Assembly (NCBI GenBank): GCA_047651235.1
Contig: CP178758.1
Coordinates: 2,280,001-2,312,000, forward strand
DNA: 32,000 bases
Source: Candidatus Electrothrix yaqonensis
GTDB taxonomy: Bacteria > Desulfobacterota > Desulfobulbia > Desulfobulbales > Desulfobulbaceae
Reading direction: 5' to 3'
The notes beneath the pieces were generated by a model. The model ran no database searches and was not told the DNA's origin. It saw only the letters and a program-made list of their open reading frames with translations. How positions within the stretch are numbered: the stretch's first letter is position 1; every line of letters starts with the position of its first letter. This document shows, piece by piece, positions 7,221 to 31,380 of this stretch. The position numbers and the translations under genes were made by a program.

Positions 7221-8030
7221 ATGAGCAGCGATTTATCAGATATTGGATTTGACGTAAATAATGAAGAGGCGTTTTATGAATTAATTGAGAAGGCTTACGG
7301 GAAAGCTACCTCGATTAAAGCGGACAAAGGAACGTACTTTCTGTATTCGGATTCCTCAGGAGCAGAACTATGGATACAAATAAGTAAGGCAAACCAGCTT
7401 GTTGGAGTAACCCCTTATTATAAAGGGACTGGCAGAAGGACAGTTTGTCTGTCTGAAAATGTATATAGAAAAGAAAACGAGTTAGATGGTGCTTTTTATT
7501 CATGGGCAGACCCGGCTGATAAAGATGATCCGGAAAGTGGTGTATATCCCTTTGTGTTTGACGTGCCAAATCATAACTCTTTAGGAGATGTACTGCTTCC
7601 TCAAGATATTGAGATACAATTGTCAGCATTTGCGCAAGAGGTTCGTTATTATGAGAATGAAGAAAAATTTGAAAAACAGCAAAAAGGTGAAGCAAAGTGG
7701 GCATCTCAGTCATTTGTGTCTAGTGGATTATTTCACCCGGATGAAAAATCAACTCCTAAAAAACCACCAGAAGCGTTTGGAATATTTTCAGGAATAATTA
7801 AACAGACAGAAAAAAAGAAAAATGAGTTAACAGGACAGGAATTTCAATGGATGCTTGTGGATACATTGGGAGGTGAAGTCGATGTTTTAGCTGATTTAAC
7901 GTTCTTTAACACTGAACCAAAAGTTGGAGGAGTAGTACAGGGACAATTTTGGTTGACTGGACAGCTGTTAACAACGCCTCTATTAAAAAAGAAAAAGGGT
8001 ATTATAAATAGGGTTTTTGGAAAGAAATAA
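7221..8030 (+). CDS. hypothetical protein (AT-rich orphan gene)
   Basis: 269-aa ORF with a GGGG RBS-like run upstream. It is clearly more AT-rich than its flanks. No signal peptide, TM segment or recognisable motif. Confidence 0.6.
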   Translation: MSSDLSDIGFDVNNEEAFYELIEKAYGKATSIKADKGTYFLYSDSSGAELWIQISKANQLVGVTPYYKGTGRRTVCLSENVYRKENELDGAFYSWADPADKDDPESGVYPFVFDVPNHNSLGDVLLPQDIEIQLSAFAQEVRYYENEEKFEKQQKGEAKWASQSFVSSGLFHPDEKSTPKKPPEAFGIFSGIIKQTEKKKNELTGQEFQWMLVDTLGGEVDVLADLTFFNTEPKVGGVVQGQFWLTGQLLTTPLLKKKKGIINRVFGKK

Positions 8031-8268
8031 AAGCGTTGCTCATTCCTCGTTCTGATTGTCGCTTCTGGTGATGTGGGGTATGTTATCTTCTTTCACCGAA
8101 TCACCACACCGGCATAGCCGACAACCTGTTCCGTATCCCCACTGACCTCCCCGGAATCGGTGTACCGGACAAGCTCGGCCTGCTCGGCTCCCAGCTCCAG
8201 AGCGGCCAGCAGGGTGATGGTGGTAGGGATGACGCCGCACATGGATATGGTGAGGAACAGTCTTTCGG

Positions 8269-16686: not shown

Positions 16687-16843
16687 GAAGGGAGAGTGAA
16701 ATCCCGCATGATTCTCGTTCAGGCGATTTAAAAAAATCTCCCGCCGAGACGAGATCTCTCCCCAAAAAGATGAAAACGAGACAACGTGTGGGAAATAAAA
16801 AAACAGGGAGCCAAGCTGTGCTGTCTAACCCCCTGAAATACTT

Positions 16844-16919
16844 GGTACGCCAAGCAGGATTCGAACCTGCGACCTACGGCTTAGAAGGCCGTTGCTCTAT
16901 CCAGCTGAGCTATTGGCGC
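16844..16919 (-). tRNA. tRNA-Arg (anticodon UCU), CCA encoded
   Basis: The reverse complement GCGCCAATAGCTCAGCTGGATAGAGCAACGGCCTTCTAAGCCGTAGGTCGCAGGTTCGAATCCTGCTTGGCGTACCA folds as a cloverleaf. It has a 7-bp acceptor stem, D stem GCTC/GAGC, anticodon stem ACGGC/GCCGT with loop CUUCUAA, and T stem GCAGG/CCTGC with TTCGAAT. Confidence 0.95.
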
Positions 16920-16973: not shown

Positions 16974-19325
16974 TCAATCTTCATTTCGGGTGGCATTCTC
17001 ACAAAATTTACAGGCTTCATCCTGCTCCCACACCGGCCCGTTTGCCGTATCGTGAACAATAATTCCTTTCTCCAGTAACTCTGTCCTAGCCTGATCCGCT
17101 GCAGGCCAATCCCGCCGTTGGCGCGCTTCTTCCCGCTGTTCAATCAGCCGGTTGATTTCCGGGGCCAGGACGCACTGCTCCAGGCGGAGAAAACCGAGAA
17201 CTCTGTTCATCCTGCGCAGCAGAGCAAAAATATCATTTTTCTGTTCCGAATCAAGGGCACCGACATAGAGGATCGGGTTCACCTTTTTGATGAATTCAAA
17301 TAGAGCGCCGACTGCGCCGGAAATATTCAGATCATCATCCAGCGCCGTAATAAACTGTTCCTCCAGTTCGACCAGGAGAGGGCTGATGGCCGGATGGGGA
17401 AGTCCGGGACGCAGGCAACGTAATTTTCTGGTAAATTCATCAATGCGTTTCAGGGCCTTGCGCACGGAATCCAGCTTTTTCCAGCTGAAATGCAGGGCCT
17501 TACGGTAATGCACCCCGAGCAGCATAAAGCGTATTTCCCGACCGATGTACCCTTTATCCAGCACCTGCTGCAGCGTCACCACGTTATCTGCTTCTGCAGA
17601 CATTTTTTTGCCCTTGTGCAGCAGCAGGCCGGAGTGGAGCCAGTACTTGGCCAGCGGCTTGCCGGTCAATGCCTCGGCAATGGCAATCTCGTTTTCATGA
17701 TGGGGAAAGAGCAGATCCTGACCGCCGATATGAATATCAATGGTTTCTCCGAGACATTTTGTGGACATTGCCGTACATTCGATATGCCAGCCCGGCCGGA
17801 TATTGCCCCAGTCGGTTTCAAAAAAAATGCCTTTTTTCAGCTCGCCGAGGGTGGAGCGCTTGAGCAAGGTAAAGTCTCTCGGATTTCCCTTTTCATAATT
17901 ATCCAGATCAACCGTCCGGCCCACCTGAATTTTGCTTAAATCAGCACCGGATAGCTGACCGTATTTCCTGAATTTGGAAATATCAAAATAGACCGACCCA
18001 TGTTTTTCATAGGCATAGCCTTTATGGATCAGTTCGTGGGCGATCTCAATCATTTCACCGACATAATCCGATGCTTTGGGATAGCCGGAAAAATCATTCA
18101 TCCCAAGGATGCTGATGGCCTCGCGGAAGAGGGAAATATATTTTGCCGTGAAGTCGGCCAGCGGCTGACCGGCCTTTTCAGCCCCGCTGATGGTATTATC
18201 ATCCAGGTCGGTAAAATTCATCATGGACTGGACTTCAAAGCCCTTGAAGCGGAGATACCGGGTGATCAGATCGGCAACAACCAGACGGCGGCAGTGGGAC
18301 AGATCGGGCTGTTCATAGGCGGTCGGCCCGCAGGCGTAAAAGGTAACTTTTTTTCCCTGGAGAGGCCGGAAGGCGTCTTTTTTTCGGCTGACCGTGTTGT
18401 ACAGGCAGAATTGCTGCCCGCTGTTTTCCAGTTTTTCCCGGCGGATAAAGAGTGGTGTGCTCAGGTAGCGCTCACCGCCGTCCGGCAGGATGGCAACAAC
18501 ATAGCTGTCCTTCTGTTTTTCGGCCTGCTCCATGGCAGCAAACATGGCAGCCCCGGAACTCATGCCGACAAAAAGTCCCTCTCTGCGGGCCAGGATTCGG
18601 GAAGTGCGGAAGGCATCCTCGTCTGCCACATTGACGATTGCATGAGGCAGAGATTTGTCAAATATCTCCGGCCGGTAGGACTCTTTCATATTTTTGAGAC
18701 CCTGAATCTTATGCCCGTAATACGGTTCCACGGCAACAACCCGGACTGACGGATGATGTTCTCTGAACCAGATGGACAGCCCCATTGCCGTGCCGGACGT
18801 CCCCAGCGTGGAGATAATATGCGTGACCTTACCGCCACTCTGTTCCCAAATTTCCGGAGCCGTGCTGTTGTAATGGGCCTGCCAGTTGGCCGGATTGTTG
18901 AACTGATCCGTGAGGAAATACAGACCCGGATGTTCACGCACCAGGGCATAGGCTTTTTCAATGGCTCCGTCCGTGGAACGGACAGCCGGGGTGAGTAGGA
19001 GTTCAGCACCGTAGGCCCGCATGATCTGCCGCCGCTCCATGCTTGCCGACTCCGGCATCACCAGCCGGCACCGGTAGCCCTTGGCTGCACAGACCATGGC
19101 AATGCCGATGCCGGTGTTGCCGCTGGTGGCCTCCAGGACAATCTTGTCCCGGGTCAGCTCGCCGCTCTGTTCCCCGGCCTCGATCATGTTCAGGGCAGGC
19201 CGATCTTTGACCGAGCCGCCCGGATTCAGGCATTCGAGCTTGGCGTGAATTTCGCCTGCTTCCGGCCCGACCATGCGGGGCAGGGAGACAACCGGGGTAT
19301 TGCCGATAAGATTCAAAAGATTCAT
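16974..19325 (-). CDS. fusion protein: cysteine synthase (CysK/CysM-type PLP enzyme) :: cysteinyl-tRNA synthetase-like domain
   Basis: The N-terminal ~300 aa carry NPGGSVKDR (PLP Lys), TSGNTGIGIA and GTSGT. The C-terminal ~470 aa are collinear with CysRS (ACGPT, PGWHIECTAM, FPHHENEIA, anticodon-binding DDDLN region). However HIGH reads DLSH and KMSKS reads KMSAE. ATG 19325 (TTG 19328 in the track). Confidence 0.85.
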   Translation of the reverse strand: MNLLNLIGNTPVVSLPRMVGPEAGEIHAKLECLNPGGSVKDRPALNMIEAGEQSGELTRDKIVLEATSGNTGIGIAMVCAAKGYRCRLVMPESASMERRQIMRAYGAELLLTPAVRSTDGAIEKAYALVREHPGLYFLTDQFNNPANWQAHYNSTAPEIWEQSGGKVTHIISTLGTSGTAMGLSIWFREHHPSVRVVAVEPYYGHKIQGLKNMKESYRPEIFDKSLPHAIVNVADEDAFRTSRILARREGLFVGMSSGAAMFAAMEQAEKQKDSYVVAILPDGGERYLSTPLFIRREKLENSGQQFCLYNTVSRKKDAFRPLQGKKVTFYACGPTAYEQPDLSHCRRLVVADLITRYLRFKGFEVQSMMNFTDLDDNTISGAEKAGQPLADFTAKYISLFREAISILGMNDFSGYPKASDYVGEMIEIAHELIHKGYAYEKHGSVYFDISKFRKYGQLSGADLSKIQVGRTVDLDNYEKGNPRDFTLLKRSTLGELKKGIFFETDWGNIRPGWHIECTAMSTKCLGETIDIHIGGQDLLFPHHENEIAIAEALTGKPLAKYWLHSGLLLHKGKKMSAEADNVVTLQQVLDKGYIGREIRFMLLGVHYRKALHFSWKKLDSVRKALKRIDEFTRKLRCLRPGLPHPAISPLLVELEEQFITALDDDLNISGAVGALFEFIKKVNPILYVGALDSEQKNDIFALLRRMNRVLGFLRLEQCVLAPEINRLIEQREEARQRRDWPAADQARTELLEKGIIVHDTANGPVWEQDEACKFCENATRNED

Positions 19326-19356
19326 CAAGCAGGATCTCAGATAAAATAATTACAGG

Positions 19357-19386
19357 TTAAAAGAAGGGGCACGGTGCGCCGTGCCC
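19357..19386 (-). terminator. rho-independent terminator downstream of the TolC-family gene
   Basis: On the minus strand an 8-bp GC stem GGGCACGG-CGCA-CCGTGCCC is followed by CUUCUUUUAA. Confidence 0.6.
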
Positions 19387-19411: not shown

Positions 19412-20860
19412 TTAAGGTTCATCAGCAATGGAAAACGGCTCCAAATTACGACCGACAGCTGCCAGCAGCTGATGCCTGGCCTGCTGATAGGCGGTGACGG
19501 CCTGCACCAGACGGGCGTAGGTGGCGGTCAGATCCCGCTGAGCTTCATTCAGCCGGACCAGAGAGGCGGAACCGGCCTCATATTCACTTTTTGCCAGCTT
19601 CCGGTTTTCTTCGACCAGCGCAACGGTTTCCCGCTGCAGCCGGACCTGTTCACGGGCAGCAGCCAGCCGGACGACATTCTGCCGCACTTCTGCGGCAATA
19701 CTGTTGCGCAGCTCGGCATGACTGTATTTTGCCTCTCTTTTCGCCTGCCGCGCCTCCAAGATCGATGCCTGGACAGCGCCTCCGGAATAGAGGGTCCAGC
19801 TGGCGCTCAGGCCGATGGAGCCTCCGAGATCATCACCGCCAGGCAGCAGGCCGTCCTGGGTGTCGCCGCCCACCTGCCCGACGATCTGCACAGTGGGCCA
19901 GTTGGCGGCTTCCGCCTGGCCCACTCCGGCTTCCGCCGCTTTGATCCGCATGGACAACGCCTTGAGGTCCGGCCGTTCCTGCAGGGCTTTTTTAATCAGC
20001 TGATCCGTCTCCCCGACGAAATCATCTGCAGAATCTGCAGAGATATCGCAGTCTCTGTCAAGTTCAGCAAGCTGCACATGCTCCGGCAGAGTCGAATCGG
20101 CAATGCCCAGCAAAGCGGCAAGACCGTATCCGGCCGCCTCATAGTCCCGCCTGCTGACCAGCAGGGTATTTTCTGCCGCATTGCGCTGCACTTTGATATT
20201 CAGCACATCGCTCAGCAAACCGCTTCCCACCTCAAGGCGGTTTTCAGCATCCTGCAGCTGCTGAGTATAAAAGTCCCTGTTGGCTTCAGCAATCTCAATG
20301 GATGTCTGGGCAAGCTGGGCATTGAAAAAGGCATCGGCAACTGCCGAGACCAGCAGGCGTCGGGTATTCCGTCTGCCTGCAACGGAAGACTGCAGCCCGT
20401 ATCTGGCCTGTTCCTGCTGAAATTTTTTCGCATGACCGTCAAACAGAAGCCAGGAGGCCTGCAGAGCCAGAGTACTGGTCTCATAATTTTGGTCCGCATC
20501 TGGCTGCGACATGGAGACAAGATCAAAATTGCTGTCTGAATATCGGGCAAGGCCGGTTGAACCGCTGGCCTGCACTCCGGGCATATCAGCCGCCATGGCC
20601 TGTTTCACCCGGGCTTTTGCCTGTTCCAGACGGGCCTGAGCAGCACCGATTCCAGGATTGCCCTGCAGGGCGATGCGCTGCGCGGTCTCCAGATCCAGTA
20701 CCTCAATTGCGCTGAGATCATATTCTGCAGATTTAGATTGAGCAGTTTCTCTGACAGCTTCCTTGCCAACTTCCTTTCCCAGCGCAGCGGTGAACAGCAG
20801 ACAGAGGGCTGCCGCCGCAATACCTGCTGTTAAAATATACTTTAATTTTATAGAGTTCAT
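19412..20860 (-). CDS. TolC-family outer membrane efflux protein
   Basis: 482 aa with a signal peptide (MNSIKLKYILTAGIAAAALCLLFTAALG). Two repeated coiled-coil/beta halves show typical OEP motifs (LDLETAQRIALQGNP..., YEAGSASLVRLNEAQ). Confidence 0.85.
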   Translation of the reverse strand: MNSIKLKYILTAGIAAAALCLLFTAALGKEVGKEAVRETAQSKSAEYDLSAIEVLDLETAQRIALQGNPGIGAAQARLEQAKARVKQAMAADMPGVQASGSTGLARYSDSNFDLVSMSQPDADQNYETSTLALQASWLLFDGHAKKFQQEQARYGLQSSVAGRRNTRRLLVSAVADAFFNAQLAQTSIEIAEANRDFYTQQLQDAENRLEVGSGLLSDVLNIKVQRNAAENTLLVSRRDYEAAGYGLAALLGIADSTLPEHVQLAELDRDCDISADSADDFVGETDQLIKKALQERPDLKALSMRIKAAEAGVGQAEAANWPTVQIVGQVGGDTQDGLLPGGDDLGGSIGLSASWTLYSGGAVQASILEARQAKREAKYSHAELRNSIAAEVRQNVVRLAAAREQVRLQRETVALVEENRKLAKSEYEAGSASLVRLNEAQRDLTATYARLVQAVTAYQQARHQLLAAVGRNLEPFSIADEP

Positions 20861-21367
20861 GATCTGTTCCGATGGCGTGACAGTTGAGGACAGCTCTGTC
20901 CCTGTTGCTCCCTATTGAAACATCGTCCTCCATATTTTGCAAAATGTTTCTTCCGGGTTATCCGCACTTGTCGGCAGATAACAAACCGCAGCGCCTCGGA
21001 ACAACAGCAGGATTATCCGAAAAAACACTTCACTCCAGCGAAAATAACGTGTATACATTCCGAATTGTTGCAGACAGCAGAGAGGGTGTTTTTTAAGGAA
21101 ACCTCAAAAGAACTCCGGAAGTGATCGATCTTCTCGAATGTTGTTTTTCGATAAATGATCGTTCTAAAAAACTTTTCAGCGCCCGAATCCTCCGTCTCTG
21201 TTTTACCGGAACCCCGGACAGTCCGGAGACAGCTGTCCGTATTGATTACGACTGCCCGGAATCCAATCCTGTTAGTTTTTAAAACAGAAGTCATGCGTTT
21301 ACCCTGCAGATAGCCAACGGAAAATCAGATTTACAGTCTATTTGAAAATTTAAGATCAGGAGAAAAA

Positions 21368-22024
21368 ATGATGAAGAACGGTATAATACTTGTTTTTGCT
21401 GTCATCCTGCTATCATTTGTAACAGGATGTTCATCAGAAAATAACAGAAAAGCACAAGGAGCTTTCCGTAACAGTCAACATGCTGTATCTGATGAAGAAG
21501 ATGTTGCTATCGATAAGGAAGTACCTTTTGCAGAACCTTCTGCGGAAGAGGAAAAACTCTATTCGTTAATCAATAACCACCGTAAACAGCATGGTTTGTC
21601 ATTTATTCCGTTATCCAAATCATTATCCTATGTTGCCAAAACTCATGTAAAAGATCTTGCAGCTCATCCCCCGGCCGGGAAATGTAATAAACATAGCTGG
21701 TCTGACAGTGATCTCTGGACATCCTGCTGCTATACAGATAACCATGCGCAAAAAAGATGTATGTGGAACAAACCTAAGAACTTGACGAATTATAGGGGAA
21801 ATGGATATGAAATTTCTTATGGTGGCAGGAAGATAAAAGCAACAGCCAAGCGGGCGCTTCAATCCTGGAAGTCCAGTCGGTTTCATAATGCGGTTATTCT
21901 TAATCGGAAGATCTGGGCAGATAAGAACTGGAAAAGTATCGGGATAGGTATCTTTGAAGATTATGCTGTTGTCTGGTTTGGTGAGAAGGTTGATCCTGAT
22001 GGATATTGGGAAAAAGGTAATTGA
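21368..22024 (+). CDS. lipoprotein with CAP/SCP/PR-1-like (YkwD-type) domain
   Basis: Lipobox LSFVTGCSS. CAP-like INNHRKQHGLSFIPLSKSLSYVAKTHVKDLAAH ... ALQSWKSSRFHNAVIL ... GIGIFEDYAVVWFG. Strong RBS AGGAGA. Confidence 0.7.
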   Translation: MMKNGIILVFAVILLSFVTGCSSENNRKAQGAFRNSQHAVSDEEDVAIDKEVPFAEPSAEEEKLYSLINNHRKQHGLSFIPLSKSLSYVAKTHVKDLAAHPPAGKCNKHSWSDSDLWTSCCYTDNHAQKRCMWNKPKNLTNYRGNGYEISYGGRKIKATAKRALQSWKSSRFHNAVILNRKIWADKNWKSIGIGIFEDYAVVWFGEKVDPDGYWEKGN

Positions 22025-23406: not shown

Positions 23407-24777
23407 ATGCGTCACCCTGCTCTCCTTATCGCCGGAACTCATTCTGGCTGCGGCAAGACCACGGTCACCCTCGGCATTATGGCGGTGCTGCATCAGCGCG
23501 GGTTCACCGTGCACCCCTTTAAATGCGGCCCGGATTTCATTGACCCGACCCTGCACCGACTCATAACCGGCAATGCATCCAGGAGTCTGGATGTACGCAT
23601 GTGCGGCCCGGAGTATGTGCAGCAGACATTCAGCACCCATGCCCCGGCAGTTCCTACCGGCAGGGCAATCTCGATCATCGAAGGCGTCATGGGCCTGTTT
23701 GACGGTGGCACGAGTTCTGCTGCCCATCTGGCGATCCTGCTGGGCCTGCCGGTGATTCTGGTGGTGGATGTGCGTTCCGCAGCAGAAAGCGTGGCTGCTG
23801 TGGTCAAAGGCTTTGAGAGCCTGGATCCGCAGGTGCGGCTTGCCGGAGTGATCTGCAACCGGACAGGCAGTGAACGGCATGTGCAGATGGTGACCGATGC
23901 GGTCAGGCAGCATTGCCGGGCCGAGGTCATCGGCTCTCTGCCCAGGGAAAACGGCATCAGTCTGCCCTCCCGCCATCTCGGCCTGCACATGGGCACCGAA
24001 ATTGACCTGAACCGTACTCGGCTGATTGAACTGATGGAGGAACATCTGGACGTTGACCGGCTTGTTACCCTGGCCGGGGAAGCGCAGGTTCCCCAAAGCT
24101 CATCCGCTGCCCCACTCGAACCTGTAGGCCGGGTTCGTCTCGGTTTGGCCCGGGATGCGGCCTTCTGCTTTTATTATCAGGATAATCTGGATATGCTGGA
24201 AACCGCCGGGGCCGAGCTGGTTCTGTTCAGCCCGCTGCACGACAAAACCCTGCCGGAGAATCTTGACGGATTATATCTTGGTGGAGGGTATCCGGAGCTG
24301 CACGCAGAGGCGTTGTCGGCTAATGAGGCCATGCGGGAGGCTGTACTGGCTTTTTCACGATACGAAAAGCCGGTGTACGCAGAATGCGGCGGCTTTATGT
24401 ATCTGACCGAAGCGATTTTTTCTGCGGACGGGCAACAGTACCCGATGGTCGGAGTGTATCCGGTGACATCCCGGATGCAACCGCGTCTGCGCAGTCTCGG
24501 CTATCGCCAGGCAGAAATGCGGAGCGCAACAATCCTCGGCCCGGCAGGCAGCCGCTGCTACGGCCATGAGTTTCATTACTCCGCCATAGACGCTATGCCC
24601 GAAGAAATCAAACGGGGGTATCTGCTGGATGGCGGTCGGGAGGAAGGCTATGTCCGGGACAACACCTTGGCAGGATATGTTCACCTGCACTGGGGCCGAA
24701 CCCCGGAAGTGCCCCGGTATTTTGTCCGCATGATGCAGAAGAAAGGAACTGGCCGGGTCTATGAATTTGTTGCTTGA
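23407..24777 (+). CDS. cbiA: cobyrinate a,c-diamide synthase CbiA/CobB
   Basis: 456 aa. N-terminal P-loop GTHSGCGKTT, and a C-terminal glutamine amidotransferase domain with ECGGFMYL and a His (GHEFHYS). Confidence 0.9.
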   Translation: MRHPALLIAGTHSGCGKTTVTLGIMAVLHQRGFTVHPFKCGPDFIDPTLHRLITGNASRSLDVRMCGPEYVQQTFSTHAPAVPTGRAISIIEGVMGLFDGGTSSAAHLAILLGLPVILVVDVRSAAESVAAVVKGFESLDPQVRLAGVICNRTGSERHVQMVTDAVRQHCRAEVIGSLPRENGISLPSRHLGLHMGTEIDLNRTRLIELMEEHLDVDRLVTLAGEAQVPQSSSAAPLEPVGRVRLGLARDAAFCFYYQDNLDMLETAGAELVLFSPLHDKTLPENLDGLYLGGGYPELHAEALSANEAMREAVLAFSRYEKPVYAECGGFMYLTEAIFSADGQQYPMVGVYPVTSRMQPRLRSLGYRQAEMRSATILGPAGSRCYGHEFHYSAIDAMPEEIKRGYLLDGGREEGYVRDNTLAGYVHLHWGRTPEVPRYFVRMMQKKGTGRVYEFVA

Positions 24778-25023
24778 ACGATATTGAAGCAAGCGGGCGA
24801 GATAAGGAAGAGGAGTGACAAATTAGAAGCTGTTTTAAAAATCCTGCTGAGCCAATCTCCTTACAAGAATGCTGATCATGGAAATCTGAATCATCGTCTT
24901 TTCTGACTTTCCTGAACACTTTGATCATACCGTATCCTTTAAGATGAACTAGACCTCCTGCAAAACTGCCTGTTCTTCTCAGGCGGTGAGGTTTCCCCTT
25001 TTTTTTGTTTCGCCAGCAGTCTT

Positions 25024-25482
25024 TCATTTATCTCTTATGTGACGGAATCCCGGAGGCAGGGCAAATAAGAAACCGGGTAACGCGCAGGGCACGTACCCGG
25101 TGGACTGCTTTACATACAGCCCGAATCGCTGCTGCGGAGCAGGCCAGGCTGTAGTATTGCTTGAGACGGAGAGAGTGAGATGTACAGGTTGTAAAAAAAA
25201 CCGGCTAACGCTTCCTTCTTCTTTCTCAAGCTCTTTTGCAAGACAAAAGAATCTTTGAGCATCAATACGAAGCTCATACAGACAAAGAGCGACTGTAATT
25301 ACAAAAGCTAAAAGGGATAAAGATAGAAACCACTTTTCCATACATGATAGCGCAACTTTGTCTTGCTTCGTTAACGCAAGGAAGAACACACCAGTCGCAC
25401 CAGAGGAAACTGACAGAATATAGGCTCTTAACCTATTTCCAGCATCTTTTGCTAATTCATGATACTTTCCAATTTCAGTCAT
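25024..25482 (-). CDS. small 2-TM membrane protein (cassette ORF); 3' part probably read-through into non-coding GC-rich sequence
   Basis: The first ~90 aa are AT-rich and coherent (amphipathic N-terminus, two TM helices, ELRIDAQRFFCLAKELEKEE). After plus coordinate ~25210 the composition switches to GC-rich hairpin sequence and the translation looks non-protein-like. The ATG lies 16 nt after the attC-like junction. Confidence 0.45.
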   Translation of the reverse strand: MTEIGKYHELAKDAGNRLRAYILSVSSGATGVFFLALTKQDKVALSCMEKWFLSLSLLAFVITVALCLYELRIDAQRFFCLAKELEKEEGSVSRFFLQPVHLTLSVSSNTTAWPAPQQRFGLYVKQSTGYVPCALPGFLFALPPGFRHIRDK

Positions 25483-25498
25483 CTCGGACCCTTAACTG

Positions 25499-25580
25499 TC
25501 ATAACGCCATGCTTCATGGGCGCCGCAGTCCGGCTGCGCGAGCGGACGGGCAAGGTGTCCCATGGAAGCAAATGTTATGC
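25499..25580 (-). other. attC-like recombination site (82 nt)
   Basis: Minus strand: GCATAAC-ATTTG-CTTCCATGGG-(38 nt)-CCCATGAAG-CATGGC-GTTATGA. The L'' arm has one extra C, which gives an extrahelical G on the bottom strand. Confidence 0.55.
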
Positions 25581-25587
25581 GAATTCT

Positions 25588-26553
25588 TTATTCTGGTAAA
25601 TCTGGCAATCCCTCAAGAATTTCTTCAGTAGACTGTGCTACCGCTGGGTAAATACGTTTAAGTTCATCAACATCTACCTTGCGTCTCTTGAGATTGAAGC
25701 TTCCAGTCGTATTGTAGATCTCATAAAAATCAATTTTATTGGGTCGCGCTTCTAGGCTGCTTACGATAGCGTAAACAATTGCGTTTGGACAACGTAATCC
25801 GAATGTAACGTCTTTAAGCTCTAACGGCGAATTTTGTAAACCCTTGTTGCCAATAATGCGCCACTCTTTTTCATATTTCCACGAATTTGCTTTTCTAAAA
25901 TAAACACGGCTATCCAACAGATTTCTCGATTGTATGTTGTTTTCTACCAACGCTTCCTGAACCAGACTTGTGGGTATTTTTCGAGTTCGGTTGTATTCAA
26001 TTTTTTGTATATTCGGTTCTGGTTTTCGACTAAAACCATATCCCAAACAAATTCCCTTGTGTTCATCACCATAATGACTCCATAGAACGGGATCAATTAC
26101 CGTTGAAGAAAAACAACATAATCCGCGATCATATTTTTTTAAGATTTCGGATTGTATTTTCTGGGTCAGTAAAAATATTTCTGAGTCTTCAGGATTGCTA
26201 CCCAAATCAGGATCTTTCGCATAATAGGCAATATTGGCTAATTCAGCTTCTGCTTTCTGACTCGCCGTTTTTCTTGCATATGATTCGGCGTTCTTTCCCT
26301 TAATTTCAGAATTCGATAGTTGAAACATTATTTCATTCGAAACTCTTCTTTCAATCAGTTTTGACAAAAGAACTCGCATATCCTGTAAATTCGTGTCGAA
26401 TTCTATCGCCGGTTTACAATCGAAAGGATCATTGTACTTGGTTGGATCAGCATAATATATTTTGTCCTCACATATTAATTCGATCGTTTCTGCAGTTACG
26501 CTTCGATATCGGAAAATTGATTTGGGAAGCTTCGCCTTCATTTTCATCCCCAC
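25588..26553 (-). CDS. DUF2971 family protein
   Basis: 321 aa. FRYRSV...IYYADPTKYNDPFDC, CCFSS...VLWSHYGDEHKGICLGY and WKYEKEWRI match the DUF2971 pattern. The start is ambiguous (GTG 26553, ATG 26547 or 26541). Confidence 0.8.
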   Translation of the reverse strand: MGMKMKAKLPKSIFRYRSVTAETIELICEDKIYYADPTKYNDPFDCKPAIEFDTNLQDMRVLLSKLIERRVSNEIMFQLSNSEIKGKNAESYARKTASQKAEAELANIAYYAKDPDLGSNPEDSEIFLLTQKIQSEILKKYDRGLCCFSSTVIDPVLWSHYGDEHKGICLGYGFSRKPEPNIQKIEYNRTRKIPTSLVQEALVENNIQSRNLLDSRVYFRKANSWKYEKEWRIIGNKGLQNSPLELKDVTFGLRCPNAIVYAIVSSLEARPNKIDFYEIYNTTGSFNLKRRKVDVDELKRIYPAVAQSTEEILEGLPDLPE

Positions 26554-26602
26554 CGTTGTAATTCGATAACAATTTGTTTTAGCCGAACTTCATGTTGGCT
26601 TC

Positions 26603-26707
26603 GCATAACGATGAAGCTCACGGGCCCGCCGATCGAGCGAAGCGAGGAGGGAACCCAGCTGAGCCGCAGGCGAAGTTGGGCGGGTCCGGTGCAGCGCCGG
26701 GTTAGGC
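26603..26707 (-). other. attC-like recombination site (105 nt)
   Basis: Minus strand: GCCTAAC-CCGGC-GCTGCACCGGACCCGCC ... GGCGGGCCCGTGAGC-TTCATC-GTTATGC. The arms pair with two extra bases in the L'' arm. The stop codon TAA of the upstream ORF lies inside R''. Confidence 0.55.
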
Positions 26708-27034
26708 CACATGTTCTGCATGGACCAGCAAGAGCTTGAATTGACCGAGGCGAGAGGAGAGGAGCCACCGAATGAGCAGGTAGATGAATAAGAAGCCAAC
26801 GCATAGGCCGAGAACACCACCAACTATTGGGGCTGCTTTTGGTACACCCGCGAGGCCTAAGATAAAGCCGGCTATGCCACCGAGGATGCCTCCGCAGAGA
26901 CCAGAGCCGATTGATATGATAATGGCTCGCCAAAAGAAGCTCCAGCAGACGCTTGCTTTTGAAGAGAGAGGAAGTTCTGAGATGTTCAATGGGTTCATGT
27001 CGGACTCCGAGGGGAAAGATTCAAGAGAAGCCAT
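26702..27034 (-). CDS. small glycine-zipper membrane protein (cassette ORF)
   Basis: 110 aa with two predicted TM helices rich in GxxxG (GSGLCGGILGGIAGFILGLAG, VGGVLGLCVGFLF). The ATG lies 28 nt after the G|TTAGGC junction. Confidence 0.6.
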   Translation of the reverse strand: MASLESFPSESDMNPLNISELPLSSKASVCWSFFWRAIIISIGSGLCGGILGGIAGFILGLAGVPKAAPIVGGVLGLCVGFLFIYLLIRWLLSSRLGQFKLLLVHAEHVA

Positions 27035-27062
27035 GTAGTAGATTGATGCATTGGTGGTTGTG

Positions 27063-27125
27063 GCCTAACCATTGATTCCAAAGGCGCGCCCCTTCGGGCC
27101 ACGCCTTTGGAATGCCGAGTTGACC
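27063..27125 (-). other. attC-like recombination site (63 nt)
   Basis: Minus strand: GGTCAAC-TCGGC-ATTCCAAAGGCG-(15 nt)-CGCCTTTGGAAT-CAATG-GTTAGGC. Perfect 12-bp L stems, unpaired 5-nt spacers, and a canonical GTTAGGC core. Confidence 0.5.
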
Positions 27126-27254
27126 GTACCGGCCCAACATTTGATTCCTGCGGCGCTGCGCGCCTTCGGAACCAAACGTTGGACTCGAAATTTTCCTGGT
27201 ATAATCAACCGCAAGCGGCCATTATACCAGGAAAATTCCGGTCAACTCGGCATT
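27111..27254 (-). ncRNA. candidate structured RNA / ORF-less cassette (16-bp closing helix around two long hairpins)
   Basis: The perfect 16-bp pairing 27111-27126/27239-27254 encloses a 19-bp hairpin (27187-27205/27221-27239) and a 15-bp hairpin (27134-27148/27168-27182). All three non-WC pairs are G.U only on the minus strand. The G(CUUG)C tetraloop also exists only on the minus strand. Confidence 0.35.
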
Positions 27255-27327
27255 ATCAGGCGATGTTCACTGATAACAGGTGATAATTGACATTATCGGG
27301 AATGCTGCTCTGATAATGTATTATCAG
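27252..27327. promoter_or_regulatory. cluster of GATAAT/ATTATC palindromes (operator- or attI-like)
   Basis: CTGATAAT-GT-ATTATCAG is a perfect 18-bp palindrome at 27310-27327. TGATAAT-TGAC-ATTATCG lies at 27281-27298. ATTATCAG (27252-27259) pairs with CTGATAAC (27270-27277). Confidence 0.5.
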
Positions 27328-27375
27328 GAACTACCAGACGATTGAATGATTATCCCGTCTGATCAGTAATTCCTG

Positions 27376-27404
27376 TTTATATTCCTTAAACATACTGGTT
27401 TCAA
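27376..27404 (-). promoter_or_regulatory. sigma70-type promoter firing into the cassette array (Pc-like)
   Basis: Minus strand TTGAAA-(17 nt)-TATAAA in an AT-rich stretch, about 125 nt upstream of the first G|TT junction. Confidence 0.5.
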
Positions 27405-27529
27405 AAAGTAAACAGAAAAAAGCAGTGCAGGGGCGTAAAAAGTATCCCGCCGGTATCACACCTCTTTTTCACACCCCTTCCACAAACCACATAACGAAGC
27501 TGTCTGCTTCCGCACCTCCCGCTCTCCTT

Positions 27530-27713
27530 AAAAAATTCATCGGGTATCAAAAGGATCTTTTATCGAGTACCAAAAGGATCCTTTATCGGGCGTAGACCGG
27601 ATCACTTATCGCCCGTAAAGTGATGTATTCTACGCCCGTAAAATGGATCAATCATCGGGTATCAAAAGGATCATTTATCGAGTACCAAAAGGATCGTTTA
27701 TCGGGCGTAGTTT
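27530..27713. repeat. eight phased 23-bp iterons (consensus GGATCnTTTATCGrG...AAA), organised as a 59-bp direct repeat 115 bp apart
   Basis: GGATC at 27553, 27576, 27599, 27645, 27668 and 27691, with degenerate units at 27530 and 27622. All offsets are multiples of 23. 27537-27595 and 27652-27710 differ at 2 positions. Confidence 0.85.
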
Positions 27714-27798
27714 TACCGAACGAACGACAATACTTTTTATCCGGGACAGCCCGTGCCGGTTTCTGGCCGTAATTGTTCGGCAATCTTCAAGAAAATAC

Positions 27799-27827
27799 TT
27801 GACAGGACATACCCTGCCCTTTAAGGT
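27799..27827 (+). promoter_or_regulatory. possible sigma70 promoter of the HU-like/nuclease operon
   Basis: TTGACA (27799-27804), a 17-nt spacer, then TAAGGT (27822-27827). This lies 58 nt upstream of ATG 27885. The -10 is weak. Confidence 0.35.
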
Positions 27828-27884
27828 GTTTACAAATAAAATCTATTTTTTCATCATATTACCCCTCTGCAACGGAGAAACGTC

Positions 27885-28958
27885 ATGCCCGTGATCCACT
27901 GCAAACTCGAAGTCAACGCCCTCACAGTACCTCAGTCCTATAAAATGCGTTTTATCCCCAATAATAACCTGGGCACGAAGGACATTGCCGCAGCTATGTG
28001 CGAGATCGCCCCTGTTCTTACCCCGGATGTGGCCGAAGTCTCCATCAGCGCCCTTCTTCAGGCAGTTCAGAAGAATATGATCAACGGCAATCACGTCAGC
28101 CTGAATGACAAACTCATCTTCACCCTTTCCTTTACCGGCCGCCTGGACAATCCGGACGACCCGCTGCCGCCTGCTGCCGAGACCCTGCATGTGCGGGTTC
28201 AGCCCGCAGCAGGTTTTATGAAAGAGATACACTATCAGGCCGTGCTCGAACGGATGGACATGACTGAGAAGCTGCCGCAGATCAATCGGGTCGAGAACAG
28301 CACTCTGCAGCTCAATGATGTCCTGAGCAGCACCGATGTTCTGCAGCTGCACGGCGACAACCTGAACTTTGATCCGCAGTCGGGCAACGGGGAATGCGTG
28401 ATCAGCGGCACCCGCAGCGGCACGGCAGTCCAGACTCAGTTCGGGCCGATTTCCGACACCAATATCATCCTGATTCCCACTGTTCCGGCCCAGGACGATC
28501 CCTGGAATAACGAATACACCCTGTCGCTCTCGGTGCGCTATACCGAACACGGCACCCTGCGCACCGCCGTCTACCGCCGCAGACTGCGCACCCCGCTGGC
28601 AGTGCCCGGTCTGGGAGGGGAGACGCCGCCTGAGACCGGCATCCTGACCGGCAATGCAGCCACGCCTTATGTCGGGATCAATGCAGGCACGCTCACGGCG
28701 GACGAACGCCTCCGTATTCAGGTGGTTCAGGATGTGGCCGGAGAGCAGCTGCTCTTCTCCCTGCTTGATATGCAGGAAGGCGGCGCAGCAGGCACTGCGG
28801 TTGTCGTGACCCAGAACGGCGAATACATTCTGCCCGGCTTTGCCGGTTCCGCTGTCAGCACCCTGGAAATCACGGTGAATGAATACGCCGCCCTCTGGGA
28901 TATGATCCGCAATGACTATCAGGGCAGGCTGGTGGATGTGCTGGAGGTGGCGATGTAG
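27885..28958 (+). CDS. HU-like (Bacteroides HU_HIG-type) DNA-binding domain protein with DUF4469-like Ig-fold domain and unknown C-terminal domain
   Basis: 357 aa with RBS GGAGA. The N-terminal ~115 aa follow the HU_HIG pattern (YKMRFIPNNNLGTKDIAAAMCEIAPVLTPDVAEVSISALLQAVQKNMINGNHVSLNDKLIFTLSFTG ... LHVRVQPAAGFMKEI). The middle INRVENSTLQLNDVLSSTDVLQLHGDNLNFDP resembles DUF4469. Assignment is from remembered family patterns, not from a search. Confidence 0.55.
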   Translation: MPVIHCKLEVNALTVPQSYKMRFIPNNNLGTKDIAAAMCEIAPVLTPDVAEVSISALLQAVQKNMINGNHVSLNDKLIFTLSFTGRLDNPDDPLPPAAETLHVRVQPAAGFMKEIHYQAVLERMDMTEKLPQINRVENSTLQLNDVLSSTDVLQLHGDNLNFDPQSGNGECVISGTRSGTAVQTQFGPISDTNIILIPTVPAQDDPWNNEYTLSLSVRYTEHGTLRTAVYRRRLRTPLAVPGLGGETPPETGILTGNAATPYVGINAGTLTADERLRIQVVQDVAGEQLLFSLLDMQEGGAAGTAVVVTQNGEYILPGFAGSAVSTLEITVNEYAALWDMIRNDYQGRLVDVLEVAM

Positions 28959-29084: not shown

Positions 29085-30338
29085 ATGACCGGATACAATG
29101 AATCGTTTCTTGATGGTGTGCGACTTCCCATCCCTGAATTCAATACAGTACTGTCGAGTGAAGTGCTGAATCTGGGAGAAGTGTTCCACTATCCGAACTA
29201 TTCGGTGATCATGAACAGTGCGCCGGACAAGCGTTCACCCGTGATCGTGTGCCTGAATATCGACCAGAATCTGCTCAAAAGCACCAGGAGAAGCAACCGC
29301 TGGCGTATCGATCCCCGGATCGGATTCGAGAACCAGTTGGACAACGATTACTATGTCCGGAATCCTTGGGACAGAGGCCACATGACACGCCGTACCTCAG
29401 CAGCTTGGGGGCAGACAAAACGTGATGCGCAGTATGCCTCTGACGAGACCTTCTACTATTCCAACAGCACGCTCCAGCATGCCAACCTGAACCAGGATGA
29501 ATGGCTGAAACTGGAGGACTGGGTCTATGGACTCAAGCTCGACAAGGACGGGAAAATAACCTCGTTCTCCGGGCCGATCTATGGTGATTTTGATCGGACA
29601 ATCCGTCCCTCCGGGCGGCGGACTGCACTCATTCCGGCAGGCTTTTTCAAGGTGGTCTGCTTCATCAATAAGGAGACCGGCAAGCTGGATGTCCGTGCCT
29701 TTGTCATGTACCAGGATGCCGAGGCACTGGCGGACAAGTCCGGTCGTAAACGGTATGATAACCAGCACTACCAGGTCACTATCACCGAGGTCGAGGAGCT
29801 GACCGGTCTGCGGTTCGATGATGCCATTTATGAGTCTAACCCCCTCTACTACTCTGAGGAGAATGCTGCGTCTGAAGAGAACGTTTCAACTTTTCCGGAG
29901 AGGATTGAAGTTGCCAAGCCAGAGGATATTATTGCAGCCGGAGACAAGCGGCAGACGCTTAAAGACGATATTGTCGATATCTTTATTGCTGCGGCAATGC
30001 CTGATCCTGCCGGGAGTGGCGTCGGCAACGAATGGGTGTCTTTGATCAACCTCGGCAGTGAAGCAGTCGATCTGACCGGATGGTCACTGAGCGACAACTC
30101 GGATAAACGCCTGGTAATTGATACCGTGGTCAGTGATTCTGCTTCCCGTGTGCTTGCTCCGGGAAAGTCAATCGTCGTAAAAGGATTGGAACCGTTGCAG
30201 TTGGCAAACAAGGGTGACATCATCAAACTCTATGATGCTGACGGAGCACGGATCGACTGGGTTAATTACACAAAGCCTATGGTCCGTAGCGGGAAAGCGG
30301 TGGTTTTCCTGTCACCGCGCAATACCTTGGATGTATAG
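29085..30338 (+). CDS. DNA/RNA non-specific endonuclease (Endonuclease_NS, DRGH beta-beta-alpha-Me) fused to a lamin-tail domain; no signal peptide
   Basis: 417 aa with strong RBS AAGGAGG. PWDRGHM (catalytic His) and YYSNSTLQHANLNQDEWLKLED (Mg-binding Asn region) are collinear with Serratia/NucA nucleases. The C-terminal NEWVSLINLGSEAVDLTGWSLSD...GDIIKLYDADGARID is an LTD pattern. The N-terminus MTGYNESFLDG is not hydrophobic. Confidence 0.8.
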   Translation: MTGYNESFLDGVRLPIPEFNTVLSSEVLNLGEVFHYPNYSVIMNSAPDKRSPVIVCLNIDQNLLKSTRRSNRWRIDPRIGFENQLDNDYYVRNPWDRGHMTRRTSAAWGQTKRDAQYASDETFYYSNSTLQHANLNQDEWLKLEDWVYGLKLDKDGKITSFSGPIYGDFDRTIRPSGRRTALIPAGFFKVVCFINKETGKLDVRAFVMYQDAEALADKSGRKRYDNQHYQVTITEVEELTGLRFDDAIYESNPLYYSEENAASEENVSTFPERIEVAKPEDIIAAGDKRQTLKDDIVDIFIAAAMPDPAGSGVGNEWVSLINLGSEAVDLTGWSLSDNSDKRLVIDTVVSDSASRVLAPGKSIVVKGLEPLQLANKGDIIKLYDADGARIDWVNYTKPMVRSGKAVVFLSPRNTLDV

Positions 30339-30353: not shown

Positions 30354-30388
30354 AGGCCGGGTGAAGCATTATGGGAACCCGGCCTTTT
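30354..30388 (+). terminator. rho-independent terminator after the nuclease gene
   Basis: AGGCCGGG-(16 nt)-CCCGGCCT followed by TTT, 16 nt after the stop codon. Confidence 0.55.
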
Positions 30389-30564
30389 GCGCCTCTATAG
30401 TTGTCAGCACTTCCCATGGATCGTATTTTCCTTTTCTCTCACTGCCTGTTCGTTCTCTTCTTGTCAACAGCGCAAGAAATGACTATTGTTCTGATTACGA
30501 AATAATCTACAGAGGAAAACGAACCAAACAGCCCCTGATCGCCAGCGGCGATACTGTCCGAACA

Positions 30565-31011
30565 ATGAAGATCGTCTGTAAAAATAAAAAGGCCTTCCAT
30601 GATTATCATATTGATAAAACTATGGAGGCTGGCATGGTGCTGACCGGGCCGGAGGTAAAATCCCTGCGTGCCGGTCGGGCCAATATCAAGGACGGTTATG
30701 CAAGAATGAAGGACGGGGAGGTGTTTCTCTATAATATCCACATTTCCCCGTATGCCTTTGCCGCCGATGCCGCTGATCCGCTGCGGGTGCGCAAGCTGCT
30801 CCTGCACCGCCGGGAAATACGCAAGCTGATCGGCAAGCTGAATGAAAAAGGGGTTGCGCTTATTCCGCTCAAGATATACTTTATACATAACGGCAAGGCA
30901 AAAGTGGAACTCGGCCTTGCTCGCGGCAAGAAACTCTATGATAAGCGCGCCGCCTTAAAAGAAAAGCAATCAAAACGTGATGTCCAGCGTTCATTGCGTC
31001 AACAGTATTAA
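30565..31011 (+). CDS. smpB: SsrA-binding protein SmpB
   Basis: 148 aa from [37 protein letters not shown]..., a typical SmpB lying directly upstream of ssrA. The upstream part of the track ORF is rejected. Confidence 0.95.
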
Positions 31012-31018
31012 TTGTTAT

Positions 31019-31380
31019 GGGGGTGAAACGGATTCGACGGGGATATGTAAGCTCAGCGTTGCATGTCGAGTGTTCTGTCAGCTCGTAAAAATGATGGAAT
31101 TGTAAATATAATCGCAGACGATTATAACTACGCACTGGCAGCGTAAGCTGCTGTGCCGCTTTCTCGGTCCGCGCCCGTAAGGCCGGAGCAAAGCGTCGAT
31201 TCTTCGGGCTGGTCTAACCGATGTGCCTCTCATTGGAAAGACGAGAATTTAACAGGCTGGCATTCGGCAATCTGCTGTTTCGGGTGAGAGCCGGGTGCGA
31301 GATTTTTACCCGGAACTAAACATGTAGAGACGTGAGGGGAGTATTTTCGGACCCGGGTTCAACTCCCGGCACCTCCACCA
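31019..31380 (+). ncRNA. ssrA: tmRNA (ssrA)
   Basis: The 5' GGGGGTGAAACGGATTCGACGGGG pairs with the 3' ...CACCTCCACCA, including G3:U, to form the tRNA-Ala-like acceptor. T-arm GGGTTCAACTCCCGG is present. Tag reading frame 31114-31146 is GCAGACGATTATAACTACGCACTGGCAGCGTAA = ADDYNYALAA*. Confidence 0.95.

Follow-up and report, generated by a model that had tools for sequence, protein, structure and literature searches.

A cysteine synthase fused to a cysteinyl-tRNA synthetase-like module with altered ATP-site motifs in Candidatus Electrothrix yaqonensis and related bacteria

A 32,000-nucleotide stretch of the Candidatus Electrothrix yaqonensis genome (contig CP178758.1, positions 2,280,001 to 2,312,000; hereafter the window) carries a gene that joins a CysM-type cysteine synthase to a full-length module resembling cysteinyl-tRNA synthetase (CysRS). 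The signature motifs of the ATP site are replaced in this module, the zinc ligands, the cysteine pocket and the conserved residues of the C-terminal domain are retained, and the altered motifs recur in a large family of homologues. Judged from its sequence, the fusion appears to join a module derived from an aminoacyl-tRNA synthetase (aaRS) to the enzyme that makes the cognate amino acid. We tentatively propose that the CysRS-derived module binds tRNA-Cys and cysteine without charging, and that it ties CysM to the tRNA-Cys pool. The gene and the domains of its product are as follows (window coordinates; residues are those of the window protein).

16974..19325 (-): CysM-CysRS-like fusion gene, 783 amino acids (aa), ATG at 19325-19323 and stop at 16976-16974, translated from the window
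18447..19325 (-): CysM-type pyridoxal 5'-phosphate (PLP) cysteine synthase domain, residues 1-293, from Pfam PALP, TIGR01136 and likeness to 2bhs
18408..18446 (-): linker, residues 294-306, IRREKLENSGQQF, variable and modelled with low confidence
17451..18407 (-): CysRS-like class I catalytic domain, residues 307-625, PF01406 at 5.6e-90, aligned to 1li5, 3tqo and 8qhp
17166..17450 (-): helical DALR_2 region of CysRS, residues 626-720, PF09190 at 2e-10
17022..17165 (-): CysS_C anticodon-binding domain, residues 721-768, PF23493 at 6.9e-9
16977-17021 (-): C-terminal tail, residues 769-783, DEACKFCENATRNED, with a CxxC

The open reading frame (ORF) spans 16974..19328 (-) and encodes 784 aa if read from a TTG, or 783 if read from the ATG at 19325, the latter agreeing with the N-termini of the homologues. 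Pfam places PALP at residues 5-282 (1e-72), tRNA-synt_1e at 319-621 (5.6e-90), DALR_2 at 657-713 and CysS_C at 720-761, and Pfam, NCBIfam and the translation all agree with the original prediction of a complete CysK/CysM domain and a full-length CysRS-like body in a single 783-aa ORF. In Foldseek searches the N-terminal half matched CysM and the C-terminal half matched CysRS, including the tRNA-bound structure 1u0b; no PDB entry spanning both halves was found among the top matches. An AlphaFold (AF2) model of the fusion had a mean predicted local distance difference test score (pLDDT) of 81 and a predicted template modelling score (pTM) of 0.55, with residues 288-303 at pLDDT <50. Both domains appear to fold as expected in the model and their mutual arrangement is undefined, the low pTM and the low-confidence linker meaning that no trustworthy domain interface can be read from it. 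Mean pairwise identity within the family was 77% for the CysM domain, 77% for the CysRS-like module, 64% for the DALR_2 region and 31% for the 13-residue linker, and the C-terminal tail, also modelled with low confidence, was unconserved (18% identity). As the module is as conserved as the CysM domain, it is not decaying.

The N-terminal half is probably a working CysM-type cysteine synthase. SVKDR, TSGNTG (within EATSGNTGIG) and GTSGT are all intact in the PLP domain of the window protein, with the PLP lysine, K40 of SVKDR, encoded at 19206-19208 (-). Residues S38, K40, D41 and R42 were invariant in a 50-sequence alignment, and an SxKDR motif was present in all distant fusions inspected. The TSGNTG and GTxGT loops, which we take to bind the substrate carboxylate and the PLP phosphate, respectively, were conserved across fusions. 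The domain is ~50% identical to E. coli CysM (2bhs), with a Foldseek TM of 0.92 to that structure. It scored 361 against TIGR01136 (cysKM, cut-off 344.15) and 350.6 against the CysM equivalog model TIGR01138 (cut-off 394.2), and seems to be CysM-like, yet no exact CysM equivalog.

To place the residues of the CysRS-like half, the register was set by HMMER alignment to E. coli CysRS (1li5) and the coordinates were confirmed by translation of the window.

18294..18305 (-): HIGH-equivalent (E. coli H37-H40), D341-L-S-H344, from the HMMER alignment to 1li5
18186..18197 (-): KIIK-equivalent (E. coli 73-76), N377-T-I-S380, from the same alignment
17592..17606 (-): KMSKS-equivalent (E. coli 266-270), K574-M-S-A-E578, from the same alignment
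17688..18332 (-): span within which the Zn ligands and the cysteine pocket are retained, with no variation in 121 family sequences or among canonical CysRS; by translation, C332 at 18330-18332, W513 at 17787-17789, C517 at 17775-17777, H542 at 17700-17702 and E546 at 17688-17690

The alignment confirmed the register in which HIGH had originally been read as DLSH, KMSKS as KMSAE and KIIK as NTIS. The Zn ligands C332, C517, H542 and E546 and the cysteine-pocket residue W513 are all present in the window protein, as are R731, D744, R747 and D759 of the CysS_C domain, which correspond to E. coli R423, D436, R439 and D451; the earlier observation that the Zn/cysteine-binding residues and the anticodon/C-terminal region are kept was found to hold throughout the 121 family sequences. 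The window protein also keeps GGQD, the GG motif being replaced in most family members. Overall, the CysRS-like half is 36-41% identical to canonical CysRS by tblastn, with Foldseek TM values of 0.81-0.89. The roles of HIGH, KIIK, GG and KMSKS in the ATP site, and that of the C-terminal domain in anticodon binding, are presumed from class I synthetases in general rather than from an ATP-bound structure. The roles of the Zn ligands and of the cysteine pocket are likewise assumed to be those of E. coli CysRS, and are partly backed by published work (PMC5660078).

A search of 5.8 billion proteins returned >120 homologue clusters of 771-849 aa and 67-83% identity that have the altered motifs in common. 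Named homologues came from Ca. Electrothrix, Ca. Electronema, Desulfobulbus, Desulfogranum, Desulfolithobacter and Desulfobulbaceae. Because the altered motifs are common to >120 full-length homologues and the two domains are equally conserved, they are no sequencing artefact, and the changes appear to be a trait of the family. The architecture is already in the databases, where every named homologue is called 'cysteine--tRNA ligase'; a full-text literature search found no paper describing a CysM-CysRS-like fusion family.

To determine which sites had changed, 121 Desulfobulbaceae-type family members were compared with 117 canonical CysRS at the sites that are at least 90% conserved in the canonical enzymes. 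There were 74 such sites, of which 58 were unchanged in the family, including the Zn ligands C28, C209, H234 and E238, the cysteine-pocket residues G29, T68 and W205, and R423, D436, R439, D451 and G455 of the C-terminal domain (E. coli numbering). The remaining 16 were changed or variable and included H37 and G39 of HIGH, K73, G226, G227 and D229 of GG-x-D, and K269 and S270 of KMSKS. By our own division of the site table into ATP-motif and other sites, changes affected 7/9 of the former and 9/65 of the latter (Fisher p = 1.8e-4), a clustering in line with the original suggestion that the module is likely to bind cysteine and tRNA-Cys without activating cysteine with ATP in the normal way. 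R423, D436, R439 and D451 were invariant wherever the region was present, in all four groups compared below and in a subclade that has lost the KMSKS loop, and we infer that these invariant residues read the tRNA-Cys anticodon.

Positions 39, 76, 226, 227 and 269 drift within the family, and position 269, the second lysine of KMSKS, is free to vary even among close relatives (A/G/E/V/D). The HIGH region has the consensus N-[LMI]-[AGS]-H, with N at position 1 in 111/120 members and A at position 3 in 92/120, and N replaces K73 in 119/120.

Loss of the ATP motifs has gone further in a subclade comprising a fusion from a Desulfatibacillum metagenome-assembled genome (MAG; L008) and the proteins P0129 and P0126. 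In these, HIGH is replaced by QLSE, QLGE or NIND, the Zn ligand C209 by T or S, and GG by SS, and the entire KMSKS loop is gone, whereas every motif of CysM is kept, as is R..AR...[DN][WF]..AD..R of the C-terminal domain. The three are 47-61% identical to one another, indicating that the subclade is old. That a subclade without HIGH and the KMSKS loop is nevertheless maintained indicates that the module has a function independent of aminoacylation; from these sequences, the module and its tRNA-reading domain appear to be under selection where aminoacylation is not credible.

A scan of genome contigs yielded at least about 10 fusion loci among the matches listed, together with unrelated canonical cysS genes. 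Among those matches the fusion occurred in Desulfobulbales, Desulfobacterales including Desulfatibacillum, other Thermodesulfobacteriota, and Caldimicrobium. A search with representative sequences brought out the subfamily signature 'x-H-L-G-x-C-R-R', 'H-T-S-G-x-D', 'KMSRS' and an 'LLKRS...ELKRGI' insertion. Members that at first seemed to stand alone (467-475 aa; Polyangia and 'Deltaproteobacteria' MAGs) were in each case examined encoded directly 3' of cysM, with a 4-nt overlap in L084 and L085 and a 4-nt gap in L086. Linkage to CysM, whether fused or adjacent, is obligatory across the clade, and no truncated members were found among >230 from several orders. The nearest relatives with canonical motifs came from Woesearchaeota, Nanoarchaeota and Patescibacteria; in the two DPANN contigs examined, a canonical cysS lies 1-2 nt 3' of cysM, and a nanoarchaeal protein (P0130) is the same PALP-CysRS fusion with HIGN and KMSKS intact. 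The 'LLKRS...ELKRGI' insertion is shared by the split-operon cysS of contig L005 and is absent from P0130. The four groups compared were as follows (E. coli positions).

DPANN/Patescibacteria cysM-linked type, n=118: HIGH region canonical; 226 is G; 269 is K (118/118)
Split pairs, n=56: HIGH region HxGL; 226 is S; 269 is R (56/56)
Other fusions, n=59: HIGH region mostly H-x-G-[LNV]; 226 mostly S; 269 is R (53/59)
Desulfobulbaceae-type (the group of the window protein), n=120: HIGH region NxAH; 226 mostly A; 269 variable; 270 is E or D

The fusion, whose distribution the original prediction had left to be mapped, is widespread in Thermodesulfobacteriota. In neighbour-joining (NJ) trees, all eroded forms, fused in Thermodesulfobacteriota or split beside cysM in Polyangia-like MAGs, fell into one clade in 189/200 bootstrap replicates. 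This clade was sister to the DPANN type in only 116/200 replicates, a weak association. Its members are 44-46% identical to the DPANN cysM-linked cysS and 38-39% identical to other CysRS, the corresponding means for the window group being 44.6% and 38.5%. This closeness to DPANN cysS over other CysRS would fit a copy gained in addition to the host's own cysS, and not that cysS itself. These comparisons weakly suggest that the family descended from a cysM-cysS gene pair like that of DPANN archaea; these bacteria may have gained such a pair, or it may have arisen in them, as an additional copy, with the ATP site remodelled afterwards.

Some observations were made in passing on these relatives. 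In L087 (617-5395) and L088 (527-5389), both DPANN, cysM-cysS stands beside HcyBio (PF01837) and NIL-ferredoxin genes, and the set looks like a compact sulfur-amino-acid gene cluster. In contig L005 (CAZLRI010000403.1), assigned to a Pseudobdellovibrionaceae MAG, the products of cysM and of the canonical cysS group with Woesearchaeota, Nanoarchaeota and Patescibacteria proteins and are up to 98% identical to metagenome proteins; the contig is probably mis-binned. P0162 (711 aa) is a canonical CysRS with a hexapeptide-transferase (serine acetyltransferase-like) N-terminus and P0138 (858 aa) is a fusion with duplicated canonical CysRS segments; cysteine-pathway enzymes seem to have been joined to CysRS more than once. 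Directly after the split pair of L084, a Polyangia-like metagenome contig, lies a MoeB/ThiF-type adenylyltransferase gene (7430-8185 (+)). In Mycobacterium tuberculosis, CysO and CysM carry out thiocarboxylate sulfur-carrier chemistry, and by analogy the L084 gene hints at chemistry of that kind. No MoeB/ThiF gene was present at the equivalent locus of L086, where a 73-aa ORF after the pair had no Gly-Gly end and no NCBIfam match.

At the sequence level, catalytic motifs have been lost, pocket and C-terminal-domain residues have been kept, and the module is fused or adjacent to CysM, as would be expected of a pseudo-synthetase. In the mechanism that we tentatively favour, the module would have given up housekeeping aminoacylation and would bind tRNA-Cys, along with free cysteine or the cysteinyl end of the charged tRNA, thereby making the activity of CysM depend on the condition of the tRNA-Cys pool. 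Such a module would follow the logic of a sensor or regulator, as with HisZ acting on HisG or with GCN2, whose HisRS-like domain couples tRNA status to a kinase. HisZ itself, a paralogue of an aaRS, has no adenylation activity and conveys histidine feedback to HisG (reviewed in PMC9437257). A separate canonical cysS would be expected elsewhere in the genome. When the window and all fusion loci were searched by tblastn with canonical CysRS, the fusion itself was the sole match and no second CysRS appeared, and no second PF01406 gene was present in the 20-kb neighbourhoods of the Electrothrix GW3-4 (CP147990.1, fusion at 849504-851855), Electronema V4 (JBRAVP010000003.1) and Thermosulfuriphilus fusions.

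Several observations weigh against a module that no longer charges tRNA. The fusion passes the NCBIfam model TIGR00435 (cysS) with a score of 403.6 against a cut-off of 340; since it does, this model cannot separate the eroded clade from working CysRS. Part of the altered site is fixed within the family, with H at HIGH position 4 in 120/120, N at position 1 in 92%, N73 in 99%, K266 and M267 invariant, and an acidic residue (E/D) at 270 in 115/120 (96%). The new fixed residues hint at retained ligand binding, and suggest that the ATP site has been remodelled rather than randomised and that some ligand is perhaps still bound there. An Arg follows HIGH ('RR', E. coli T43 -> R) in every member of the eroded clade inspected, and K or R precedes KMS in the members inspected; these basic residues could compensate for the loss of K269, for which ArgRS enzymes without the KMSK lysine offer a precedent. 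Finally, K266A/K269A E. coli CysRS has been reported still to support translation in the PURE system (Akaike et al. 2017, PMC5660078).

All of this would suit a bifunctional enzyme in which cysteine is supplied by CysM and tRNA-Cys is charged by the C-terminal half by way of a rewired ATP site, and which could even be the only CysRS of its host. The Zn/cysteine pocket, connective-peptide (CP) domain, helical region and anticodon-binding domain are conserved as in working CysRS, and N-x-A-H is itself a conserved motif. The DPANN cysM-linked CysRS, of the ancestral type, is canonical, as is the P0130 fusion in its HIGN and KMSKS, and the K269R replacement is strict in the split pairs and near-strict in the other fused relatives. 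We nonetheless regard a bifunctional enzyme as possible but unlikely. Position 269 drifts among close relatives of the window protein and position 270 has turned acidic, G39, G226 and G227 are replaced in most members, and the sister subclade without the KMSKS loop and a Zn ligand is still maintained; the clade also lies closer to the cysS of DPANN archaea than to the CysRS of other bacteria, which is what an extra acquired copy would show. Substrate channelling between the two halves, suggested in the original prediction, is plausible for the ancestral state, represented by the DPANN cysM-cysS operon with canonical motifs, but leaves the loss of the ATP motifs unexplained.

It is rather doubtful that the module is catalytically alive, either as the sole CysRS of cable bacteria and other Desulfobulbaceae or in an ATP-independent chemistry on tRNA-Cys or Cys-tRNA-Cys together with the PLP domain. 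Either would be unprecedented. In the former case, tRNA-Cys would be charged with neither the first histidine of HIGH nor the second lysine of KMSKS; the latter would mean a novel branch of cysteine or thiol metabolism that depends on tRNA.

One form of ATP-independent chemistry would be a transferase that takes Cys-tRNA-Cys from the housekeeping CysRS as cysteinyl donor and holds an acceptor, possibly the product of the PLP domain, in the rebuilt ATP pocket. The tRNA-reading domain and the cysteine pocket have been kept while the phosphate-binding residues have been lost and a conserved acidic 270 has been gained, N37, H40 and N73 are fixed in new states that suggest a new ligand, and the CysM linkage is obligatory. 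However, no acceptor-forming gene is conserved nearby, the neighbourhoods differing by lineage, and the most eroded pocket, that of the loop-deleted subclade, speaks against conserved catalysis there. We consider improbable such a transferase, which would run without ATP the type of reaction for which MshC uses it.

Chemistry on the tRNA itself or on persulfides, also put forward in the original prediction, is less credible still. Here the PLP domain would convert Sep- or Ser-tRNA-Cys in the manner of SepCysS, or the fusion would be a persulfide synthase of the CARS type. A PLP beta-replacement enzyme is indeed tethered to a module apparently able to bind tRNA-Cys, and the host lineages, to judge from the organism names, live on sulfide and sulfur chemistry. 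CysM belongs to PLP fold type II and SepCysS to fold type I, and the PLP domain of the fusion is an ordinary CysM with TSGNTG intact, the presumed carboxylate-binding role of which points to a free amino acid as substrate; no SepRS, SepCysS or PSTK-like gene was found in the window or in the related loci examined. Cysteine persulfide synthase (CPERS) activity was reported to need K73, K76, K266 and K269, mutants of which still translate (Akaike et al. 2017, PMC5660078). N377, S380 and A577 replace three of these four lysines in the fusion, and as the lysines reported to be essential are those that are missing, the persulfide idea is weakened.

That the CysRS-like half is a functionless relic carried by a useful CysM half is very unlikely and can be given almost no credence: the signature motifs have gone and there is drift at some ATP-site positions, but the module is as conserved as CysM, 58/74 canonical sites are unchanged, truncations are absent, and the module is also kept as a separate linked gene, overlapping cysM by 4 nt in L084.

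The surroundings of the fusion gene were of little help. In the 86-nt gap between it and the upstream TolC-like gene (19412-20860) lies the following element.

19367..19386 (-): terminator-like GC-rich hairpin followed by a T-run, by pattern match only

The hairpin suggests that the fusion gene is transcribed alone, and Rfam matched only tRNA and tmRNA in the window, revealing no upstream regulatory RNA. A tRNA-Arg(TCT) gene (16843-16919 (-)) lies 54 nt beyond the fusion stop. The neighbours in the window are housekeeping genes (TsaD, RsmA, MoaA, tRNA-Arg and the TolC-like gene), the TolC-like neighbour being held in common with Electrothrix only, and Tmk or DciA take their place in other lineages. 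As the neighbours are housekeeping and vary between lineages, they offer no functional clue beyond the cysM linkage, and gene context was rejected as functional evidence.

In Ca. Electrothrix GW3-4 (L081, 12760-22352), resolvase, HTH and type I restriction-modification genes lie just downstream of the orthologue, and in Ca. Electronema (L090, 1-9934) restriction-modification and HicAB genes lie on its upstream side; the fusion gene sits at variable, island-prone borders. Elsewhere in the window, 20001-22000 and 24001-28000 have a GC content of 0.45-0.49, compared with 0.53-0.59 in the rest. These low-GC stretches hold genes for a CAP-domain protein (21368-22024) and a DUF2971 protein (25588-26553) and ORFs without Pfam matches, and may be acquired DNA. 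A protein with a non-specific DNA/RNA endonuclease domain (Endonuclease_NS) and a lamin-tail domain is encoded at 29085-30338 (+). The SmpB gene (30361-31011 (+)) is followed by the tmRNA gene (31019-31380 (+)), with the tag ADDYNYALAA, in an ordinary arrangement.

The hosts of the fusion include the cable bacteria Electrothrix and Electronema as well as Desulfobulbus, Desulfocapsa, Desulfogranum mediterraneum, Desulfatibacillum, Caldimicrobium and Thermosulfuriphilus. They live in sulfide, where the control of cysteine synthesis is a real problem. Because the fusion passes TIGR00435, every copy seen has been automatically named 'cysteine--tRNA ligase', a practice that can mask a missing or a second cysS. 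Counts of marker genes can be disturbed as well, TIGR00435 being among the bacterial marker models of GTDB. The graded series from canonical motifs (DPANN) through HxGL/KMSRS and NxAH/KMSxE to the loop-deleted forms could reveal the steps by which the ATP site of a class I synthetase is lost or rewired.

Of the known systems, canonical CysRS (class I, EC 6.1.1.16; 1li5 and 1u0b) has the same set of catalytic, DALR and anticodon-binding domains as the fusion, and all four Zn ligands, W205, T68 and the invariant C-terminal-domain residues are found in both. Unlike canonical CysRS, the fusion has HIGH, KMSKS and K73 replaced, has CysM attached, and forms a separate clade. In the closest canonical relatives, the DPANN/Patescibacteria cysM-cysS operon and P0130, both proteins recur in unchanged order, either fused or encoded 1-2 nt apart. 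The DPANN-type CysRS differs from the window fusion in its canonical HIGN, GG and KMSKS (118/118) and presumably serves as the housekeeping CysRS.

The CARS/CysRS persulfide synthase resembles the fusion in linking a CysRS scaffold with PLP and cysteine chemistry; in the fusion, however, only K266 is left, and it is a conventional CysM domain apart from the CysRS scaffold that supplies the PLP. In MshC the ATP motifs are intact and the anticodon-binding domain is missing. The fusion possesses that domain and scored 195.6 against TIGR03447, far below the cut-off of 485.1, so that membership of the MshC family, to which the original prediction had proposed an alignment, does not hold. MshC and CysRS* were the only CysRS paralogues with non-standard roles listed in a 2022 review, which describes the CysRS* of some Desulfobacterales as lacking an anticodon-binding domain and being linked to selC*/selB* (PMC9437257). 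In contrast to CysRS*, the fusion has an anticodon-binding domain and no SelB-like neighbour, and the RNA genes of the window are only tRNA-Arg and tmRNA. It would be a third CysRS-derived paralogue family beside MshC and CysRS*, and the first to be tied directly to cysteine synthesis.

The nearest functional parallels may be HisZ and GCN2, to which the fusion is likened from its sequence alone. In all three an aaRS-derived module lacks the normal catalytic motifs and keeps ligand or tRNA binding, the latter being a prediction for the fusion, and in HisZ, as here, the physical partner of the module is an enzyme from the pathway of the corresponding amino acid. The fusion differs from both in deriving from a class I CysRS rather than a class II HisRS, and in keeping its amino-acid pocket and anticodon-binding domain. 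If the proposal of a non-charging, tRNA-binding module is correct, the fusion would be a cysteine counterpart to HisZ-HisG, and possibly a GCN2-like reading of tRNA status at the protein level in bacteria.

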